From Nannocystis pusilla (lineage in GTDB: Bacteria > Myxococcota_A > Polyangia > Nannocystales > Nannocystaceae), in the NCBI RefSeq assembly GCF_049337375.1, contig NZ_JBMPIV010000001.1: a stretch of DNA of 64,000 nt; one strand, 5' to 3'. The notes beneath the pieces were generated by a model. That model was not told where the DNA came from and made no database searches. It saw only the letters and a program-made list of their open reading frames with translations. Positions 13,161 to 23,509 of the stretch are shown one piece after another (within the stretch, counting starts at the first letter, position 1; every line of letters begins with the position of its first letter). Position numbers and translations under genes: made by a program.

Positions 13161-14336
13161 GTGCTGAGTTACGAGAAGATGTTCCAGTCCTCGGCAGGAC
13201 TTTTGGCCACCGTGGACGCGAGCGGCCACTTCCGCGCCCTGAATCCGACATGGGAGCGGATCCTCGGCTGGTCCCTCGACGAGCTGAGGAGCAAGCCGTT
13301 CATCGAGTTCGTCCATCCGAGCGACCGCGAGGCCACGCTCACCGAGGTGGCCAATCTCCTCCAGGGCAACCCGGTCGAGCGGTTCGACAACCGCTACCTG
13401 TGCAAGGACGGCTCGTACAGGTGGCTCGGCTGGGCCGCGCGGGTGGACGCAGGGGACGAGCCGTCGGAGCAGCTCATCCATGCGACGGCGATCGACGTGA
13501 CGCGAGACCGGGAGCGGCTGGCGCAGCTCGATCCCAGGCTGCAGGACGCCAAGGTCTACGAGAAGTTGTTCCGGGTCTCGGTGGGCCTCCTCGTCACCCT
13601 GGACGCGAACGGTTATTTCCGCCACGCCAACCCGGCGTGGGGGCGTCTCCTCGGCTGGAGCCCCGAGGAGATGACGGCGAGGCCGTTCATCGAGTTCGTC
13701 CATCCCGACGACCGCCCGGCGACGGTCGCGGAGGCCGCGGCCCTGTTCGAGGGCAAGATGACGATCCGCTTCGACAACCGCTATCAATGCAAGGACGGCA
13801 CCTACAAGTGGCTCGCCTGGACGGCCTACTTGGATCCGAACGAGGACGAGTCGACCCGGCTCGTGTACGGCACGGCCCATGACGTCACCTCGTACAAGGA
13901 GCTCCTCGGCGAGTTCGAGCGGACGCTCGCGCGGCTCCGCGACACGATGGAGGCGATGTCGACGCCGTTCATCCCGATCACCGAGCGGATCGTGGTCATG
14001 CCGCTCGTGGGCCAGATGGACGCGGACCGGATCCACCAGGTGATGACCGTCGCGCTCGAAGGCGTGCAGGCGACCCACGTCCAGGTGGTCATCCTCGACG
14101 TGACGGGATTGCGCGACCTCGACACTCGTGTGGCGCGCGCGCTGCTCGACACCGCCAAGGGGCTGCAGCTGCTCGGTGCGCAGACGATTTTGACCGGAAT
14201 CCGGCCGTCCGTCGCGCAGACGCTCGTCGGTCTCGGGCTCGACCTGGGCAGCATCGTCACCAAGGGGACCCTCCAGAGCGCGATCGCGTCGGCGCTGAAG
14301 AACGACCTGGTCTCGGGCAAGCCCGACCTCGTCTGA
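13161..14336 (+). CDS. PAS-PAS-STAS protein (RsbR-like anti-sigma-factor-antagonist-domain sensor)
   Basis: Two PAS-like blocks (FIEFVHPSDREAT...RFDNRYLCKDGSYRWL and FIEFVHPDDRPAT...RFDNRYQCKDGTYKWL). C-terminal STAS domain (TPFIPITERIVVMPLVGQMDADR...LLGAQTILTGIRPSVAQTL). GTG start is preceded by GGGAGGA. Confidence 0.8.
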   Translation: MLSYEKMFQSSAGLLATVDASGHFRALNPTWERILGWSLDELRSKPFIEFVHPSDREATLTEVANLLQGNPVERFDNRYLCKDGSYRWLGWAARVDAGDEPSEQLIHATAIDVTRDRERLAQLDPRLQDAKVYEKLFRVSVGLLVTLDANGYFRHANPAWGRLLGWSPEEMTARPFIEFVHPDDRPATVAEAAALFEGKMTIRFDNRYQCKDGTYKWLAWTAYLDPNEDESTRLVYGTAHDVTSYKELLGEFERTLARLRDTMEAMSTPFIPITERIVVMPLVGQMDADRIHQVMTVALEGVQATHVQVVILDVTGLRDLDTRVARALLDTAKGLQLLGAQTILTGIRPSVAQTLVGLGLDLGSIVTKGTLQSAIASALKNDLVSGKPDLV

Positions 14337-14407: not shown

Positions 14408-14767
14408 ATGGTTTTGGTCCCCGAGACTCACCTGTTCTCCTGCGCCGGATGCGACGAGCTGGTACGCGCCGCCGAGCCGGTCTGTCCCCACTGCGGCCTG
14501 TCGCGGTCCCGCGCGGAGCGCACGGGCCCGTTGGTCGCGCTGGCCGCCGCTCTCGTGGTCTCCGCCTGTACCACCGGCCAGCCCGCATACGGCGGGCCTG
14601 ACACCGATTCGGAGGGTACGGAGGTGACGACGACGGACGCGACGACGACGGACGCGACGACGACGGACGCGGCGACGACGGACGCGACGACGACGGACGC
14701 TACGGGCACGACGGCACCGACGACGGGCACGGGCTCGGAGGCGACCACCGACGACACGACCGGGTAG
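14408..14767 (+). CDS. Small membrane protein: N-terminal Cys4 zinc-ribbon, one TM segment, then (TTTDA)x5 repeat tail
   Basis: CAGC...CPHC, hydrophobic PLVALAAALVVSAC, and five tandem 15-bp repeats (14627..14701). GC3 is consistent with coding. Same architecture class as the TerB-like protein at 20899..21558. Confidence 0.45.
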   Translation: MVLVPETHLFSCAGCDELVRAAEPVCPHCGLSRSRAERTGPLVALAAALVVSACTTGQPAYGGPDTDSEGTEVTTTDATTTDATTTDAATTDATTTDATGTTAPTTGTGSEATTDDTTG

Positions 14768-15461: not shown

Positions 15462-18400
15462 ATGGTGCTTGACTCGGATGTCTCCGCCGGCCGCTCGGGC
15501 AGGTTGCACGTGCTCGCCGGTGGCGGCGAGATGGGCGCGCGCATGCGGGAGATCGACTGGGCGAAGACGCCGCTCGGCCCCGTCGACGCCTGGCCGCAGA
15601 GCCTCAAGACCTGCGTCCGCATCATCCTGACCTCGCTCCAGCCGATGTTCGTCTGGTGGGGCGACGAGCTCATCAACCTGTACAACGACGCCTACAAGTC
15701 GATCGTCGGCGGCAAGCACCCGGAGGCGCTGGGACAGCCCGCCTCCGCCGTGTGGCGCGAGATCTGGGATCAGGTCGGGCCGCGCGCCGCGTCGGCGATG
15801 CGCCTCAACGAGGGCACGTACGACGAGGCGCTGCTGCTGATCATGGAGCGCTACGGCTACCCCGAGGAGACGTACTACACGTTCTCCTACAGCCCGGTGC
15901 CGAACGACCAGGGCGGGACCGGCGGGATCATCTGCGCCAACACCGACGATACGCAGCGGATCATCGGTGAGCGCCAGCTCGCCCTGCTGCGCGAGCTGGC
16001 CGCCCGCACGACCGAGGCGCGCACGTGGGAAGAGGTGTGCGTCCGCGGTGCGGCGTCGCTGCAGACCAACCCGAAGGACCTGCCGTTCGCGCTGATCTAC
16101 ATCGCCGACGCCGACCGGCGCCGCGTGCAGCTGGCGGGGGCAGCCGGGCTCCCGCGCGGCCACGCCGGCGCGCCGGAGGTCGTGTCGACGCTCGAGGACT
16201 CGGTGTGGCCGTTCGCCGAGGCGCTGCACGGGCACGAGCGCGTCATCGAGATACCGCCTGTCCTCGGGGACATCCCCACCGGCGCCTGGCCGCGACCGCC
16301 GACGCACGCCGTCGCCCTGCCGATCGCCCCGTCGGGGGAGACCGGTCGCGCCGGGGTCTTGCTCGTCGGGCTGAGCCCGTTCCGCAAGCTCGACGACAAC
16401 TACCGCGGCTTCTTGCAGCTGGTCGCCGGGCAGCTCGCGGCCAGCATCGCCAACGCGCAGGCCTACGAGGAGGAGCGGCGGCGGGCCGAGGCGCTGGCCG
16501 AGCTCGATCGCGCCAAGACGATCTTCTTCAGCAACGTCAGCCACGAGTTCCGCACGCCGCTGACGCTGATGCTCGGCCCGCTCGAGGACGCGCTCTCGGC
16601 GGCGAAGCGCCGGCTCGAGGGCGCCGACCTCGACACCGCGTACCGCAACGCCGTCCGCCTGCTCAAGCTCGTCAACGTGCTGCTCGACTTCTCGCGCATC
16701 GAGGCCGGGCGGATCCAGGCGTCGTACGAGCCGATCGATCTGTCGGCCCTGACGACCGACCTGGCGAGCGCCTTCCGCTCGGCCGTCGAGCGCGCCGGTC
16801 TCGTCTTCGACGTCGACTGTCCGCCGCTCTCCGAGCCGATCCACGTCGACCACGACATGTGGGAGAAGATCGTGCTCAACCTGCTGTCGAACGCGCTCAA
16901 GTTCACGTTCGAGGGCACGATCGCGGTCGCGCTGCGCCTGCGCGGCGACCTGGTCGAGCTGACCGTACGCGACACTGGCACCGGCATCCCGGAGCACGAG
17001 CTGCCGCACCTGTTCCGGCGCTTTCATCGGGTCCAGGGCGCGCGCTCACGGACCCACGAGGGCTCGGGGATCGGGCTCGCGCTGGTCCACGAGCTCGTGC
17101 GCCTGCACGAAGGGACGATCCACGTCACCAGCGAGGTCGGCGTCGGCACGACGTTCACGGTGGCGATCCCACGCGGCCACGCGCACCTGCCCGCGGAAAA
17201 GATCAACCTCCGCCGCACCCAGGTGTCGTCGGCCACCGGCGCGGCGCCGTACGTGCAGGAGGCGCTGCGCTGGCTGGCCGGCCCGCAGCAAGGCGACGAC
17301 GACCTCGCCGCGGACGCGCTGGGAGCCGCCTCCGATCCGGCGCTCGAAGCCGGACCGCCGGCGCGGATCCTGCTCGCCGACGACAACGCCGACATGCGCG
17401 ACTACGTCGGCCGCGTGCTGCAGCAGCGGTGGATCGTCGACGCCGTCCCCGACGGCGCCGTCGCGTTCGCGGCGGCGCTGGAGCACCCCCCCGACCTCGT
17501 CTTGACCGACGTCATGATGCCGAACCTCGACGGCTTCGGCCTGCTCCGCGCGCTGCGCGAGGACCCGCGCACGCGGCGGATCCCGGTGCTGATGCTGTCG
17601 GCGCGCGCAGGCGAGGAGTCGCGCGTCGAGGGCCTCGAGGCCGGCGCCGACGACTACCTCGTCAAGCCGTTCTCCGCGCGCGAGCTGGTCGCCCGCGTCG
17701 CTACTCACCTGCAGATCGCCCGCCTGCGCGCCGCCGCGGAGCGCGAGCGCGAGAAGCTGTACGACCTGTTCATGCAGGCGCCGGTGCCGATCGCCGTGTT
17801 CGTCGGTCCGGAGCACCGCTACGAGGTCGCCAACCCGCCGTACTGCGAGATGCTCGGGCGCCCGGAGCTGGTCGGCCAGACCGTGCGCGAGGCGTTCCCG
17901 GAGATCGGCGAGCACGCCATGATCACGTCGCTCGACGCCGTGGTGGCGACCGGCCGACCCGTGCACGTGTTCGAGCTCAACATCCCGGTCATGCGCCACG
18001 GCGTCATCCGGGACGCTTACTTCAACTACGTGGCGCAGCCGATCCGCGCCCCGAGCGACGCGGTCACCGGCGCCATGGTCGTCGCCTTCGAGGTCACCGA
18101 GCAGGTGCTCGCGCGTCAACGGGTCGAGCGGCTCTCCGAGGAGCTGGCGCTGTCGAACAAGGAGCTCGACCAGTTCGCCTACGTCGCCTCGCACGACCTC
18201 AAGGCGCCGCTGCGGGGGATCGCCAGCCTGTCGCAGTGGATCGAGGAGGCGCTCGCCGACAAGATCGACGAGGAGTCGCAGCGGCACATGCACCTGCTGC
18301 GCAGGCGCGTGCTCCGGCTCGAGACGCTGATCGACGGGATCCTCCACTACTCGCGCGCCGGCCGCATGCGCGTCGACGCGGTCAACGTCGACACCGGACA

Positions 18401-18824
18401 GTTGCTGGCCGAGGTGGTCGAACTGCTGAGCCCGCCGCCGTCCGCCCGGATCACGATCGCTCCCGGCATGCCGATGTTGACCGCCGAGCGCGTCCCGCTT
18501 CAGCAGGTGTTCCAGAACCTGATCAGCAACGCCCTGAAGCACGCGCGCCGCGACGATGTCCACATCGCAGTCTCCTGGCGCGACGCGGGCCAGTCGTACG
18601 AATTCACGTTCCGTGATGATGGGCCGGGAATTGCGCCTGAATTCCATGAGAGGATTTGGGGCCTGTTCCAGACGCTCGAGTCGCGTGACAAGTTCGAGGG
18701 CGCGGGCATCGGGCTGTCGGTGGTCAAGAAGATCGTCGAGAGCCGCGGAGGCAGCGTCGCCCTCGAGTCGCAAGCCGGCGCGGGCGCGACGTTCATCGTG
18801 CGCTGGCCCAAGCGCTCCGGCTGA
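15462..18824 (+). CDS. Large hybrid sensor histidine kinase with two complete kinase cores: PAS-GAF-HisKA-HATPase-REC-PAS-HisKA-HATPase
   Basis: First H-box SHEFRTPL and second H-box SHDLKAPL, each followed by N/G1/G2 ATPase motifs (first core ends GSGIGLALVHELVRLHEGTIHV; second QNLISNALKH...GAGIGLSVVKKIVE). Receiver LLADDNADMRDY...TDVMMP...DDYLVKPF sits between the cores. Start codon is uncertain; alternative in-frame ATGs encode MGARMREIDW and MREIDW. Confidence 0.85.
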   Translation: MVLDSDVSAGRSGRLHVLAGGGEMGARMREIDWAKTPLGPVDAWPQSLKTCVRIILTSLQPMFVWWGDELINLYNDAYKSIVGGKHPEALGQPASAVWREIWDQVGPRAASAMRLNEGTYDEALLLIMERYGYPEETYYTFSYSPVPNDQGGTGGIICANTDDTQRIIGERQLALLRELAARTTEARTWEEVCVRGAASLQTNPKDLPFALIYIADADRRRVQLAGAAGLPRGHAGAPEVVSTLEDSVWPFAEALHGHERVIEIPPVLGDIPTGAWPRPPTHAVALPIAPSGETGRAGVLLVGLSPFRKLDDNYRGFLQLVAGQLAASIANAQAYEEERRRAEALAELDRAKTIFFSNVSHEFRTPLTLMLGPLEDALSAAKRRLEGADLDTAYRNAVRLLKLVNVLLDFSRIEAGRIQASYEPIDLSALTTDLASAFRSAVERAGLVFDVDCPPLSEPIHVDHDMWEKIVLNLLSNALKFTFEGTIAVALRLRGDLVELTVRDTGTGIPEHELPHLFRRFHRVQGARSRTHEGSGIGLALVHELVRLHEGTIHVTSEVGVGTTFTVAIPRGHAHLPAEKINLRRTQVSSATGAAPYVQEALRWLAGPQQGDDDLAADALGAASDPALEAGPPARILLADDNADMRDYVGRVLQQRWIVDAVPDGAVAFAAALEHPPDLVLTDVMMPNLDGFGLLRALREDPRTRRIPVLMLSARAGEESRVEGLEAGADDYLVKPFSARELVARVATHLQIARLRAAAEREREKLYDLFMQAPVPIAVFVGPEHRYEVANPPYCEMLGRPELVGQTVREAFPEIGEHAMITSLDAVVATGRPVHVFELNIPVMRHGVIRDAYFNYVAQPIRAPSDAVTGAMVVAFEVTEQVLARQRVERLSEELALSNKELDQFAYVASHDLKAPLRGIASLSQWIEEALADKIDEESQRHMHLLRRRVLRLETLIDGILHYSRAGRMRVDAVNVDTGQLLAEVVELLSPPPSARITIAPGMPMLTAERVPLQQVFQNLISNALKHARRDDVHIAVSWRDAGQSYEFTFRDDGPGIAPEFHERIWGLFQTLESRDKFEGAGIGLSVVKKIVESRGGSVALESQAGAGATFIVRWPKRSG

Positions 18825-18914
18825 GAGCGGTCGCGGCGCGCCTTGCTTTCTTTGCCGGTCGCGCCGAAGCTGACCCTTCAGCCTCCTCCGCGACCGCCCC
18901 GAACACGAGCCCCG

Positions 18915-19328
18915 ATGGACACCCGCGAGCTGCACATCCTTCTGGTCGATGACGACGAGGTCGACGTCCTGACGGTCAAGCGCGCCTTCCAGCGCAACCG
19001 GCTGACCAACCCGATCCACGTCGCCAACAACGGGATCGAGGCGCTCGAGAAGCTGCGCGACGGCTCGCTGGGACCGCGCCGGCTGGTGCTGCTCGACATC
19101 AACATGCCGAAGATGAACGGCATCGAGTTCCTGCGGGCCCTCCGCGCCGACCCGGCGCTGCAGACCACGTCGGTCGTCGTGCTGACGACCTCGAACGAGG
19201 AGCGCGACAAGATCGACGCGTTCAAGCTCAACGTCGCCGGCTACCTGCTCAAGCCGGTCACGTTCGGCAACTTCATCGACGTGATGGCGACGCTCAACAA
19301 GTACTGGACCCTGGTCGAGATGCCGTGA
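18915..19328 (+). CDS. Single-domain response regulator (CheY-like receiver)
   Basis: MDTRELHILLVDDDEVDVLTVKRAF...VLLDINMPKMNGIEFLRAL...AGYLLKP. Start chosen at the internal ATG of ORF 18843..19328. Confidence 0.8.
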   Translation: MDTRELHILLVDDDEVDVLTVKRAFQRNRLTNPIHVANNGIEALEKLRDGSLGPRRLVLLDINMPKMNGIEFLRALRADPALQTTSVVVLTTSNEERDKIDAFKLNVAGYLLKPVTFGNFIDVMATLNKYWTLVEMP

Positions 19329-20827
19329 CCCCGCCTCACCCCGAGCAGGAGAACGTTTCGAGCCCGCGCCCCGGTGAGCCGGTGCGCGTGCTGGTGATCG
19401 ACGACGACGAGCTCGACCGCGAGCTGGTCCGTCGCGCCTTCGCCAAGTCCGGCCTCGAGGTCACCCTGATCGAGGAGGACGACCCGATCGCCGCGCTCGC
19501 CCGCCTGCGCCGTTCGCCGGTCGAGGTCGTGGTGCTCGACTATCAATTCCCGCGGCACGACGGGCTGGTGGTGCTCCGCGGGCTGCGGGAGCTCGACGTG
19601 TTCATGCCGGCGATCGTGCTCACCGGGCACGAGGACACCGCGCTGGCGGTCGAGCTGATGAAGAACGGGGCGGTCGACTACATCGCCAAGGGCGCGCTGA
19701 CGCCTCAGCGGCTCGGGCAGAGCGTCCGCCACGCGCTCCGCCTGCGCGCCTCGGAGCTGGCGACCCGCGCGGCGCAGGAGGCCCTGCGCGCGAGCGAGGA
19801 GTTCAGCCGGCGGATCCTCGAGTCGAGCCACGACGGCATCGTCGTGCTCGACCTCGAGGGGCGCATGCTGTCGGTGAGCCCCGGGGGACTGCGCATGCTC
19901 GGCGCCGTCGAGCCCGGCCAGCTCCGCGGCCACCCCTGGGTCGAGCTGTGGAGCAGCGCGCATCGCCAGGAGGTCGCCGAGGCGCTCGCCACGGCGCGAG
20001 ACGGCAAGGTCGGTCGGGTCGTGGGGCCCGGGCCGAAGCTCGACGGCGCGCCGGTGTGGTGGGACATCATCGTCTCGCCGGTGCTCGACGCGAGCGGCGA
20101 GCCGGAGCGGCTGGTCGCCACGGCGCGCGACGTCACCGAGCAGCGGCGGCAGGCGGAGTTCGAGCAACAGCTGATCGGGATCGTCAGCCACGACCTGCGC
20201 AACCCGCTGTCGGCGATGCTGTACGGGGCCACGTTGATGGCCGAGAGCCTGTCGCCCGACTCGCCGCTCGCCGACGTCGTGCAGCGGATCGTCCGCAGCG
20301 GTGAGCGGGCGGCGCGATTGATCCGCGACCTGCTCGACTTCACCCAGGTGCGCGCGAGCGGACGGCTCCCGATCGATCCGCAGCCGGTCGAGATCCACGA
20401 GGTGTGCCGGCAGGTCGTCGACGAGATGGCGCTCAACCATCCCGACCGCGTCATCGTCCACCAGCCGGAGGGCGACGGCGAAGGGCGCTGGGATCCCGAT
20501 CGGCTCGCCCAGGCGGTCGGCAACCTCGTCCGCAACGCGCTCAGCTACGGGCTCGCAGGTACGCCGGTCACCGTCCGCAGCGTCGGCCGCGGGGCGCGTG
20601 TGCGCGTGCTCGTGCACAACGACGGCCCGCCCATCCCGCCGGAGTCGATCCCGTCGCTGTTCCAGCCGTTCCGCCGCGGCGAGCAGCGCCTCGATCGCGA
20701 GCGCAGCATCGGCCTCGGCCTGTTCATCGTCCGCGAGATCGTCGACGCGCACGGCGGTGCCGTGACCGTGCAATCGGCCGCGGGCGAGGGGACGACCTTT
20801 CACATCGACCTGCCGCGCAGGCCGTAA
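19325..20827 (+). CDS. Hybrid response regulator / histidine kinase (REC-PAS-HisKA-HATPase)
   Basis: GTG start overlaps the upstream stop (GTGA), suggesting translational coupling. Receiver VLVIDDDELDRE...VVLDYQFP. H-box SHDLRNPL. ATPase block NLVRNALSYG...GLGLFIVREIVDAHGG. Confidence 0.85.
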   Translation: MTPPHPEQENVSSPRPGEPVRVLVIDDDELDRELVRRAFAKSGLEVTLIEEDDPIAALARLRRSPVEVVVLDYQFPRHDGLVVLRGLRELDVFMPAIVLTGHEDTALAVELMKNGAVDYIAKGALTPQRLGQSVRHALRLRASELATRAAQEALRASEEFSRRILESSHDGIVVLDLEGRMLSVSPGGLRMLGAVEPGQLRGHPWVELWSSAHRQEVAEALATARDGKVGRVVGPGPKLDGAPVWWDIIVSPVLDASGEPERLVATARDVTEQRRQAEFEQQLIGIVSHDLRNPLSAMLYGATLMAESLSPDSPLADVVQRIVRSGERAARLIRDLLDFTQVRASGRLPIDPQPVEIHEVCRQVVDEMALNHPDRVIVHQPEGDGEGRWDPDRLAQAVGNLVRNALSYGLAGTPVTVRSVGRGARVRVLVHNDGPPIPPESIPSLFQPFRRGEQRLDRERSIGLGLFIVREIVDAHGGAVTVQSAAGEGTTFHIDLPRRP

Positions 20828-21922: not shown

Positions 21923-22675
21923 TCAATAGACGTACTGCAGCAGCCCCGGCCAGCCGTCGAGATCGAAGTTGATCGGCGAGGGCGCGAACTGCTGCAGGGG
22001 CGTCAGATCGACGATGCGCTGCTCCGTGATGAACGCCTCGCATGCGTCGCCCATGGCGTCGTGGTGGACGCGGACCAGCAGGATGTCGGTGTCGAGCACG
22101 ATCCCGGCGAAGCACAGGGTGAATTCATGCATCGTGCACCCGCCGCTGTAGCCGACGTCGAGCACGAGCTCGTCGCCGACGACCTTCGCCGCGTCGATGG
22201 CGAACATGTCGCCCTCGCCGAGGTCGGTGCAGTTCGGCAGAGCCTGGCCACCGGTGTCGCCGGTGGTCGTGGAGCTGTCGCCGGTGGTCGCGGAGTCGTC
22301 GCCCGTGGTCGTGGAGCCGGTGTCTGCATCGGTCGACCCGGCGCTCGTGGCATCGGCGCTCGTCGCATCGGCGCTCGTCGAATCGGCGCTCGTCGAATCG
22401 GCGCTCGTCGACCCGCCGTTCGTCACGTCCGAGCCGGTGGTCGGATTGCAGCGGTTACACTGCCAGGTGCCCTCGGCCGAGCATTCGCAGGTCGAGCAGT
22501 CGCCCTCGCCGAATTTCGTGTCGCCGGGGGTGCACTCCGTCGCGTCGGTCGAGGCGCCCGTCGAATCGCCGGTGGAGCCGGTGTCGCTGCCGCCCTTGTT
22601 CGGGCCGCACGCGAGGGAGAGCAGCGCGGCGAAGGCAGCCGCAGAGAGCAGTCGAGAAGCGAGGTTCAAGTTCAT
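21923..22675 (-). CDS. Lipoprotein with Cys-rich N-domain, S/T/D-rich linker and globular C-domain
   Basis: Internal start MNLNLASRLLSAAAFAALLSLAC (lipobox) within ORF 21923..23074. Repeats STSADSTSADSTSADATSADATSAGSTDADTGSTTTGDDSATTGDSSTTTGDTGG. Confidence 0.6.
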   Translation of the reverse strand: MNLNLASRLLSAAAFAALLSLACGPNKGGSDTGSTGDSTGASTDATECTPGDTKFGEGDCSTCECSAEGTWQCNRCNPTTGSDVTNGGSTSADSTSADSTSADATSADATSAGSTDADTGSTTTGDDSATTGDSSTTTGDTGGQALPNCTDLGEGDMFAIDAAKVVGDELVLDVGYSGGCTMHEFTLCFAGIVLDTDILLVRVHHDAMGDACEAFITEQRIVDLTPLQQFAPSPINFDLDGWPGLLQYVY

Positions 22676-23509
22676 GCCGGGAGTATAGCCTCGGGTCGGT
22701 CTCCCGGCGCACGGCGCGGGGAGCCGGGGCCGCACGTGGAACAGGAACGGGTGCCGGGCTCGGCCGGCAGGCGAGCCGACGTGCGTGCTCTTCGGCGTGA
22801 CGCCCGTGCCGGCGCAAAACGATCGGGACCGCGACGGGGAGCCCGGTGAGGGGCGCAGCGTGTGGGGGCGGGCGCGCGCGTACGACCCGTCCGGTCGGCG
22901 AAGCGCGGGCTGACCGGAGCTCGCGGCTGCGCGAGCCCGAGAACGGGGCCGAACTCGCTGCGAACGGAGCACCGCCCACGCGCGGCCGAGTACGGCGATC
23001 ATCCGCGCGGCCCGGCGCGCTCCTCGATCGAATTGCGAGTTCGCCGATGCAGGGCCAGGGCTCCGTCGATTCATGGCGGCGTGCTCCGTGCATCGAAGAG
23101 ATCATTGTTCATAGGACTGGGTCTGCAGTCGCTCGGGCGGACATCGCTAGCCTGGCCCGGCAACTGCCGCGAAAGAGGGTCGCGACATCCGAGCGCAACG
23201 AGGGATATTACCGAGAGAGAAAGCAGCTCCGTTGCGGATCTTGCGCGCAGACATTTTTGGCACCCCGAGCTGCAGATGCGCGGGCGTCCGGCGTCGACGA
23301 GAGAGTTTCGTCGTCGCGCGCTCGCTTGCCGCGGCCGCGAACCCGTCTCAAGAGGCCCGTCCACCTTCATGCTCCACTCGGAAGGCGACAAGGCCGACGA
23401 CAAGCAGGACGCGGCCAAGGGCGACCGCACCGACGACAGGGTCTCGTCGGACGTCAATGAGTAGAGCTTCGGCGAGGGCGTCGGCTGGGAGCGCCTCGCC
23501 GGCGGCGAC

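Follow-up and report, generated by a model that had tools for sequence, protein, structure and literature searches.

We analyzed a 64,000-nucleotide window of the Nannocystis pusilla contig NZ_JBMPIV010000001.1 (G+C ~70%), in which the three genes at positions 15462 to 20827 form a genuine two-component cluster of soluble proteins in Nannocystis, the first of them encoding a chimeric double kinase. The product of gene 1 joins a sensor, a first kinase core or transmitter (T1), an internal receiver (R1), a PAS domain, and a second core (T2); it is followed by a stand-alone receiver (R2, gene 2) and by a receiver-PAS-kinase (R3 and T3, gene 3). T2 together with genes 2 and 3 represents an older module onto which a kinase-receiver front end has been joined. 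This point was absent from the original prediction that the analysis followed up, as was the fact that the class of architecture is already known from TodS. As for the route of the signal, we tentatively favor a kinase cascade in which phosphorylated R1 would act as an allosteric switch of T2, and T2 would then phosphorylate the receiver of gene 2 and/or gene 3.

Gene calls and domain architecture

The genes and their parts were as follows, with the basis of each assignment in brackets.

15462..18824, + strand: gene 1, soluble 1120-aa double histidine kinase, PAS-like/GAF-T1-R1-PAS-T2 (open reading frame (ORF), Pfam)
15543..16391, + strand: sensor of gene 1, PAS-like (aa 28-165) and GAF (aa 185-310) (weak Pfam matches, AlphaFold2, Foldseek)
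16395..17174, + strand: core 1 (T1), signaling helix and DHp aa 312-414, catalytic domain aa 422-571 (Pfam)
16542-16544, + strand: H361 of T1, in H-box SHEFRTPL of type HE..T
17175..17357, + strand: T1-R1 tether, aa 572-632, flexible (AlphaFold2, linker lengths)
17358..17675, + strand: internal receiver R1, aa 633-738, with phospho-acceptor D683 at 17508-17510 (Pfam)
17676..18095, + strand: helical linker (aa 739-771) and PAS domain (aa 772-878) (AlphaFold2, PAS_4)
18096..18815, + strand: core 2 (T2), bacteriophytochrome-type, helix and DHp aa 879-965, catalytic domain aa 974-1118 (Pfam, Protein Data Bank (PDB))
18192-18194, + strand: H911 of T2, in H-box SHDLKAPL of type HD..A
18825..18914, + strand: intergenic spacer of 90 bp between gene 1 and gene 2 (read directly)
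18915..19328, + strand: gene 2, 137-aa stand-alone receiver R2 of the phytochrome-response-regulator type (Pfam, PDB matches)
19325..20827, + strand: gene 3, 500-aa REC-PAS-HisKA-HATPase kinase, with R3 at aa 19-135 (D72), PAS at aa 156-275, and T3 with H289 (Pfam)

Pfam was run on the whole gene 1 protein and on five separate segments, and the separated segments confirmed the predicted order of domains in gene 1, followed by a receiver and then a REC-PAS-HisKA-HATPase kinase. T1 (HisKA 48.1 bits, HATPase_c 102.5 bits), R1 (Response_reg 93.6 bits), the PAS domain before T2 (PAS_4 35.0 bits), and T2 (HisKA 36.1 bits, HATPase_c 91.7 bits) all scored above the gathering cut-offs. Motif conservation was then scored on an alignment of the 120 best homologs of gene 1. 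The H, N, G1 (D-x-G-x-G), F, and G2 residues of both cores were invariant in at least 115 of the 120 sequences (120/120 for T1), and D640, D641, D683, S713, and K735 of R1 were invariant or nearly so at the same level (at least 115/120). Judged from these alignments, all catalytic residues of the two cores and the receiver are under family-wide conservation. Both H-boxes and the ATPase motifs, which had been described as intact, were thus present and conserved across the homologs, and the possibility of a degenerate second core was rejected because its domains scored above the Pfam cut-offs and its motifs were kept in the 120 homologs. Since the ATP-binding residues of T2 were retained in this way, T2 probably uses ATP itself.

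An artefactual ORF, in which a misassembly, the loss of a stop codon, or a frameshift in sequencing had fused two adjacent kinase genes, is hardly credible. No support for it was found, and the draft metagenome-assembled genome (MAG) loci that are split into adjacent ORFs (L057, L062, and L085) represent an error in the opposite direction. The same protein, uninterrupted and 1119-1135 aa long, was encoded by N. bainbridge, N. exedens, and N. punicea, the other Nannocystis species examined, and by many complete Sorangium genomes. The two halves of gene 1 meet in a helical linker that is conserved, rather than in a spacer, and both had a G+C content at third codon positions (GC3) of 0.94-0.96 in a single frame. 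The fusion-artefact reading was rejected on this comparative and codon-usage evidence. In-frame GC3 was 0.94-0.97 throughout the three genes, indicating that there is no hidden frameshift. The gene 1 protein matched P0001, an "ATP-binding protein" of Nannocystis pusilla, with 100% identity. The gain in annotation is modest: a real gene, called correctly, can be given a more precise description than that name. No hydrophobic or transmembrane segment was found in any of the three proteins.

The 90-bp gap and the GTGA overlap stated in the original prediction were read directly from the sequence. The stop codon of gene 1 is separated by 90 bp from ATG 18915 of gene 2, and the GTG start of gene 3 at 19325 overlaps the stop of gene 2 (GTGA). 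The mechanical ORF of gene 2 extends up to TTG 18843; a start at ATG 18915 agrees with the length of 137 aa given to its orthologs. A scan of the spacer (18825-18914) found neither a terminator-like hairpin nor a sigma-70-like promoter site. The junction (the 90-bp spacer and ~50 flanking coding bases) was aligned between the window and its equivalents in loci L002, L007, and L010, and the mean column identity over the four Nannocystis species was 85%, with conserved stretches including GCTTGCTTTCTT and CCGAAGCTG. The conserved spacer could contain an internal promoter or a translational element. The three genes stay adjacent in N. bainbridge, N. exedens, and N. punicea, where the flanking genes differ. 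Judging from spacing and conservation, the three genes would be co-transcribed across the gap.

The N-terminal PAS-GAF assignment held in part: AlphaFold and Foldseek agreed with it, whereas the Pfam scores stayed below the cut-offs (GAF_2 23.6 vs 28.6; PAS_4 21.2 vs 23.1), and no Pfam family scored above threshold for the sensor. The predicted local distance difference test (pLDDT) score of the sensor was ~81-97 in the AlphaFold2 model made with a deep full-length alignment; in a sensor-only model, the PAS half was poor (pLDDT 40-55). The GAF half superposed on 3ci6 with a template modeling (TM) score of 0.65-0.71, and a Foldseek search with the sensor-only model placed PAS-GAF bidomains at the top and also matched GAF domains. 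The assignment is therefore supported by the predicted structures and Foldseek, and not by above-threshold Pfam matches. When residues 26-343 were compared by phmmer with all PDB chains, 0 matches were obtained at E<=1.

Sensor identity was 63-79% among Myxococcota, Cyanobacteria, Acidobacteriota, and others, which is unusually high for an input domain. The conserved stretches were WPQSLKT..., NLYNDAYK, and EETYYTFSYSP, the last almost wholly invariant, and the invariant residues included H86 and C158. This degree of conservation points to a bound cofactor or else to a small ligand that is universal. A phytochrome-like photosensor was considered for the PAS-GAF region and found to be unsupported. 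Against phytochrome PAS-GAF structures, Foldseek gave TM scores of 0.34-0.40, root-mean-square deviations of 14-18 Å, and identities of 10-16%, which amounts to a generic bidomain likeness, and no Pfam match to a PHY or phytochrome-type PAS_2 domain was obtained in the cluster proteins.

Family, origin, and surroundings of the cluster

Relatives of the full-length gene 1 protein were found in N. bainbridge (91% identity), in many Sorangium genomes (72-79%), and among hundreds of metagenome and MAG proteins (~55-60%). When the domains of the query were mapped onto each of the 120 best homologs, two kinase cores were detected in every one. The order sensor-T-R-PAS-T-R (TRTR) accounted for 87 of these proteins, and the order sensor-T-R-PAS-T (TRT), like that of the query, for 16, from Nannocystis and Sorangium; the remainder were variants, including cyanobacterial many-PAS forms and tandem duplications. 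A genome scan with two sensor peptides, taking one genome per species, gave at least 591 confirmed genome matches (sensor identity 66-95%) in Myxococcota, Cyanobacteria, Acidobacteriota, Planctomycetota, and others. Eighty loci were retrieved among the matches listed, comprising 51 TRTR and nine TRT loci of the query type, and the apparent single-core loci were mostly contig-end cuts or splits into adjacent ORFs.

Tandem-kinase hybrids had been called uncommon. This is correct overall, as a census in 2010 counted two transmitters in 51 of 4650 hybrid kinases, or ~1% (PMC3018481), but it does not hold within this large family. The dual-core architecture is thus a known class that is rare overall, yet it is the norm of a large, apparently uncharacterized family. 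Myxobacterial TRTR and TRTTRT singletons were listed by Whitworth in 2015 (PMC4603909), and the unnamed PAS-like/GAF dual-core family probably includes them. Whole-unit tandem duplications with three to four kinase cores were also observed, either on one polypeptide or in adjacent genes (e.g., sensor-T-R-T-sensor-T-R-T). Examples are a Corallococcus protein (P0042, 1584 aa, partial), a Hyalangium protein (P0097, 1734 aa), and loci L083 and L089, and these relatives resemble the TRTTRT protein described by Whitworth (PMC4603909).

Compared with the TRTR majority, the sensor, T1, R1, and the following PAS domain of gene 1 were homologous, with 55-61% identity over 98% of the length (63-79% in the sensor). 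In contrast, the TRTR proteins have an HE..T second core and a fused terminal REC, whereas those of Nannocystis and Sorangium have an HD..A core without a terminal REC. The best PDB matches of T2 were bacteriophytochrome kinase modules (9ys3/8uph, 111 bits; 8avv, 86.5 bits). Gene 2 (Response_reg 72.5 bits; residues D12, D13, D61, T91, and K113) best matched 5te9, 6xvu, and the response-regulator part of 8avv (85-101 bits), and also matched RcpA/B and Rcp1. In 8avv, a fusion of DrBphP and a regulator, the kinase half matches T2 and the regulator half matches gene 2. By sequence comparison, then, T2 and gene 2 appear to be a matched pair of a bacteriophytochrome-type kinase module and its cognate-type single-domain regulator.

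The gene 3 homologs outside Nannocystis pointed to the origin of this pair. In 4/4 contexts (Pyxidicoccus trucidator, L009; Polyangium aurulentum, L093; metagenome contigs L008 and L092), a gene 2 ortholog and a sensor kinase with a T2-like core were located upstream of them. The first kinase of these four loci carried only PAS/GAF domains upstream of its core, whereas the input of the corresponding core in gene 1 is a complete sensor-kinase-receiver unit, and the junctions between the genes were overlapping or abutting. T2 scored 252-285 bits against the single-core first kinases of the four loci; the corresponding scores were 212-248 bits for gene 2 with the receiver at the equivalent position and 186-303 bits for T3 with the REC-PAS-kinase. 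Against the second cores of the TRTR majority, T2 reached a median of ~60 bits.

Because T2, gene 2, and gene 3 match a module with a single-core first kinase, and T2 matches the TRTR second cores poorly, gene 1 is a chimera. The sensor, T1, R1, and PAS would therefore derive from the TRTR family and would have been fused, within the helix that leads from PAS to DHp, to the first kinase of an older module of the order T2, R2, and R3-PAS-T3. An origin of gene 2 by fission from the terminal receiver of a TRTR protein was also considered and rejected, as gene 2 scored 17 bits against the TRTR terminal REC and 212-248 bits against the module receiver. The occurrence of the same T2-R2-RT module with and without a kinase-receiver front end constitutes a clean natural experiment. 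At L092 (1122-7464), the module, whose first kinase is PAS-GAF-GAF-PAS-T2, has a hybrid kinase of the order HisKA-HATPase-REC encoded separately 25 bp upstream. The resulting order of TR, T, R, and RT genes is an unfused parallel to the TRT, R, and RT genes of Nannocystis; the core of this upstream hybrid kinase is only generically similar to T1 (93 bits).

Among the 80 loci, genes 2 and 3 were downstream of the dual-core kinase only in Nannocystis. They were accordingly rejected as universal partners of this kinase, the Sorangium, Hyalangium, MAG, and cyanobacterial homologs being singletons. The TRT proteins of Sorangium and Nannocystis are 72-79% identical, though the two genera belong to different myxobacterial suborders. 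This pattern reflects either loss or relocation of the R2-RT pair in Sorangium or a transfer of the TRT gene between the lineages.

A second core after R1 was found across Myxococcota, Cyanobacteria, Acidobacteriota, Deinococcota, and Alphaproteobacteria, with changes in core subtype. A tblastn search of plasmids detected homologs in Deinococcus, Azospirillum, Cupriavidus, and Natrinema, and the homologs on Deinococcus (TRT) and Azospirillum (TRT, then two receivers) replicons were dual-core. A sensor-T1-R1 homolog with 48.5% identity was located on the haloarchaeal replicon NZ_CP100757.1 of Natrinema gelatinilyticum, and the Deinococcus plasmid homologs had IS6 transposases on their flanks (L091). 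The archaeal homolog and the plasmid homologs flanked by insertion sequences hint at horizontal spread of the family.

Upstream of the cluster and on the same strand, positions 13161..14336 encode a 391-aa PAS-PAS-STAS protein with a weak resemblance to the YtvA family (94.7 bits, far below the 250-bit cut-off). Membership of this gene in the unit was ruled out by the differing flanks in the other Nannocystis species. Two further ORFs, 14408-14767 (+) and 21923-23074 (-), consist of low-complexity Thr/Asp/Ser/Ala repeats (TTDATTTDA...; STSADSTSAD...), and the former has a C-x2-C...C-x2-C motif at its N-terminus. Going by their composition, these ORFs may encode secreted proteins or lipoproteins, or may be spurious in high-GC DNA.

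Linker periodicity and the route of the phosphoryl group

Linker lengths were measured in 91 homologs, and a full-length AlphaFold2 model of gene 1 was made from the 91-sequence alignment (mean pLDDT 80.9). The linker from GAF to H361 was modeled as one helix (residues 312-379) and was 27 aa long in 91/91 homologs. In contrast, the tether between T1 and R1 (residues 572-632) was mostly coil with a pLDDT of 40-64, and the distance from G538 to D641 varied between 88 and 162 aa. The last helix of R1 (alpha5) ran into the PAS domain (K735-P774) through a continuous helix (739-771) with a pLDDT of ~80; this segment was 40 aa long in 86/91 homologs and 37, 44, or 47 aa long in the others. Between PAS and H911 (R885-H911), one helix (879-930) was modeled, and the length was 20, 27, 34, 41, or 48 aa. 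Linkers that step by heptads and keep register are expected of coiled-coil signal transmission, whereas a loose tether is expected of a receiver that docks on its kinase.

The H-boxes were compared with the published rule that autokinase activity requires an acidic residue at H+1 and phosphatase activity requires T, N, or E at H+4, and with Agp1, a net kinase with Ala at H+4 (PMC8292422). The H+1/H+4 residues were E/T in T1 (120/120 homologs), D/A in T2 in all K2-type members, and D/N in T3. By this rule, T1 and T3 look bifunctional, and T2, which resembles Agp1, looks kinase-biased.

On these grounds, the original suggestion that the internal receiver serves as a switch is favored, tentatively, by the linker analysis; its reading as a sink or a relay is less favored. 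In the cascade that we propose, a ligand or cofactor state sensed by the N-terminal domain would set the autophosphorylation of T1 on H361, and T1 would phosphorylate R1 on D683 by means of the flexible tether. Phosphorylated R1 would keep its phosphoryl group and act through the coiled-coil linkers and the PAS domain, tuning the ATP-dependent autophosphorylation of T2 on H911 up or down. T2 would phosphorylate the phytochrome-type receiver R2 and/or R3 of gene 3, phosphorylated R3 would gate T3 likewise, and T3 would signal to a response regulator encoded elsewhere. R2 would be a competing sink or an adaptor, like LhfD in the Lhf system of Rhodopseudomonas palustris. The outcome would be a three-tier kinase cascade and not a single phosphorelay.

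The main rival of the cascade is a four-step relay as in TodS, running from H361 to D683, to H911 (with the second DHp serving as a histidine phosphotransfer (HPt) domain), and on to R2 or R3; we consider it unlikely, though by no means negligible. TodS has the same domain order of sensor-HK1-REC-PAS-HK2, a His1-Asp1-His2-Asp2 transfer through its second core has been shown, and that core keeps its autokinase activity (PMC3018481; PMC4321377). Williams and Whitworth hold that TRTR relays are approximately as common as TRPR relays, and the T2 component of the Myxococcus xanthus Red system takes phosphoryl groups from a receiver (PMC3018481). In addition, no HPt domain was found to be encoded in the cluster by inspection of ORFs and Pfam searches.

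Several observations argue against the relay, however. The fixed or heptad-stepped linkers between R1, PAS, and H911 are a signature of mechanical coupling, and the path from R1 to H911 consists of a 33-residue helix, the PAS domain, and 32 helical residues; straight helices would place the R1 site far from H911. The ATP-binding residues of T2 were all invariant in the 120 homologs. Gene 3 is also built like the C-terminal half of gene 1, as a REC-PAS-kinase (full-length identity 25%, E 2e-19), and REC-PAS-kinases of this type form a large stand-alone family with no upstream kinase fused. Because the layout stands alone in this way, its receiver is taken as an input domain rather than as a relay station.

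The other alternative is that gene 1 carries two insulated pathways on one polypeptide, with T1-R1 as a hybrid kinase (R1 being a sink receiver or serving an unlinked HPt partner) and PAS-T2 answering to its own signal and serving R2/R3. In favor of it, the two units that make up the chimeric gene 1 have different histories, the PAS domain preceding T2 could have a ligand of its own, and the extra domains of TodS have been proposed to integrate further signals (PMC4861429; PMC4321377). We nevertheless regard insulation as improbable. Insulated units need no conserved register, whereas the R1-to-PAS linker was 40 residues long in 86/91 homologs and the exceptions were off by 3, 4, or 7. The presence of a second core after R1 in 120/120 best homologs and across five phyla/classes argues for functional coupling.

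Several points weigh against the proposed cascade. All directions of phosphoryl flow in it are ones that we infer. The AlphaFold2 model is a monomer with a predicted TM score of 0.40 and unreliable inter-domain geometry, and its secondary structure and confidence profile were what we used. No helix-turn-helix domain or output regulator was found to be encoded in the three-gene cluster by Pfam. The 90-bp gap is a distance that co-transcription would have to bridge. The Sorangium loci of the TRT protein (L001, L012-L017, and L077) lack genes 2 and 3, so T2 need not depend on adjacent partners. By analogy with TodS, whose second core relays and yet keeps autokinase activity, the conserved ATP-binding residues of T2 would be compatible with a relay. 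Finally, the G1 box of T3 is non-canonical, with Asn in place of Asp: the family motif is N-x-G-x-P/A-I (Asn in 98/98 homologs), and gene 3 itself has N-x-G-x-P-I. A comparable box, N-P-G-T-P-I, occurs in Escherichia coli CusS, and a similar N-type G1 box is present in a Pseudomonas bacteriophytochrome structure that is among the best PDB matches of T3. As the variant is conserved throughout the family and has this counterpart in Pseudomonas, T3 is probably active.

With somewhat greater reserve, the cascade may be extended to the whole cross-phylum family, the members of which would be single-polypeptide kinase cascades with R1 gating T2 by heptad-register linkers; in Nannocystis, the third tier (gene 3) would be wired alike. 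If this is true, the cluster would represent a bacterial three-kinase His-Asp cascade that is capable of amplification or thresholding and is driven by an ultra-conserved sensor. This sensor, found in at least 591 representative genomes, has neither a named family nor a solved structure, and a large number of proteins would be annotated once its signal is found.

Comparison with known systems

Among double kinases, only TodS has been dissected, and the linker periodicity described here offers a specific alternative to its relay model that can be put to the test. TodS/TodT of Pseudomonas putida, the dissected example of the TRT-R order (PMC3018481), and likewise TmoS and StyS resemble gene 1 in being soluble cytoplasmic sensor-HK1-receiver-PAS-HK2 proteins with two complete cores and a receiver gene directly downstream. 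This likeness is one of domain order and not of direct sequence comparison. The two systems differ in three respects. First, the sensors are unrelated: that of gene 1 contains a GAF domain and gave no PDB match even though PAS1 structures of TodS are in the PDB (PMC4861429). Second, the downstream partner of gene 1 is receiver-only and not a DNA-binding regulator of the TodT type, and a third kinase follows. Third, the linker periodicity in gene 1 suggests allosteric coupling, and the models and alignments lean against a TodS-type relay.

The Lhf system of R. palustris (BphP2/BphP3, LhfD, LhfE, and LhfA), in which a histidine kinase feeds a single REC and a downstream REC-kinase (PMC6879726), is alike in architecture. 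In both systems, a kinase whose core is of the bacteriophytochrome type is encoded side by side with a single-domain receiver (which takes its phosphate in Lhf) and a downstream REC-kinase. However, the Lhf kinases are true phytochromes and cluster with the output regulator LhfA (REC-HTH), whereas the Nannocystis cluster has neither a photosensory module nor an output regulator. The same distinction applies to the bacteriophytochrome pair of BphP and an Rcp-type regulator: the subtypes of the kinase module and the regulator match those of T2 and gene 2, but the PAS-GAF-PHY photosensory module was not found by Pfam. RedCDEF of M. xanthus (T1-R1R2-T2-R3) is similar to gene 1 in its alternating transmitters and receivers and in having a receiver that signals to a second transmitter (PMC3018481). 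Unlike gene 1, the Red system distributes its components over separate proteins; RedE (T2) also appears unable to autophosphorylate, whereas T2 of gene 1 keeps every catalytic residue.

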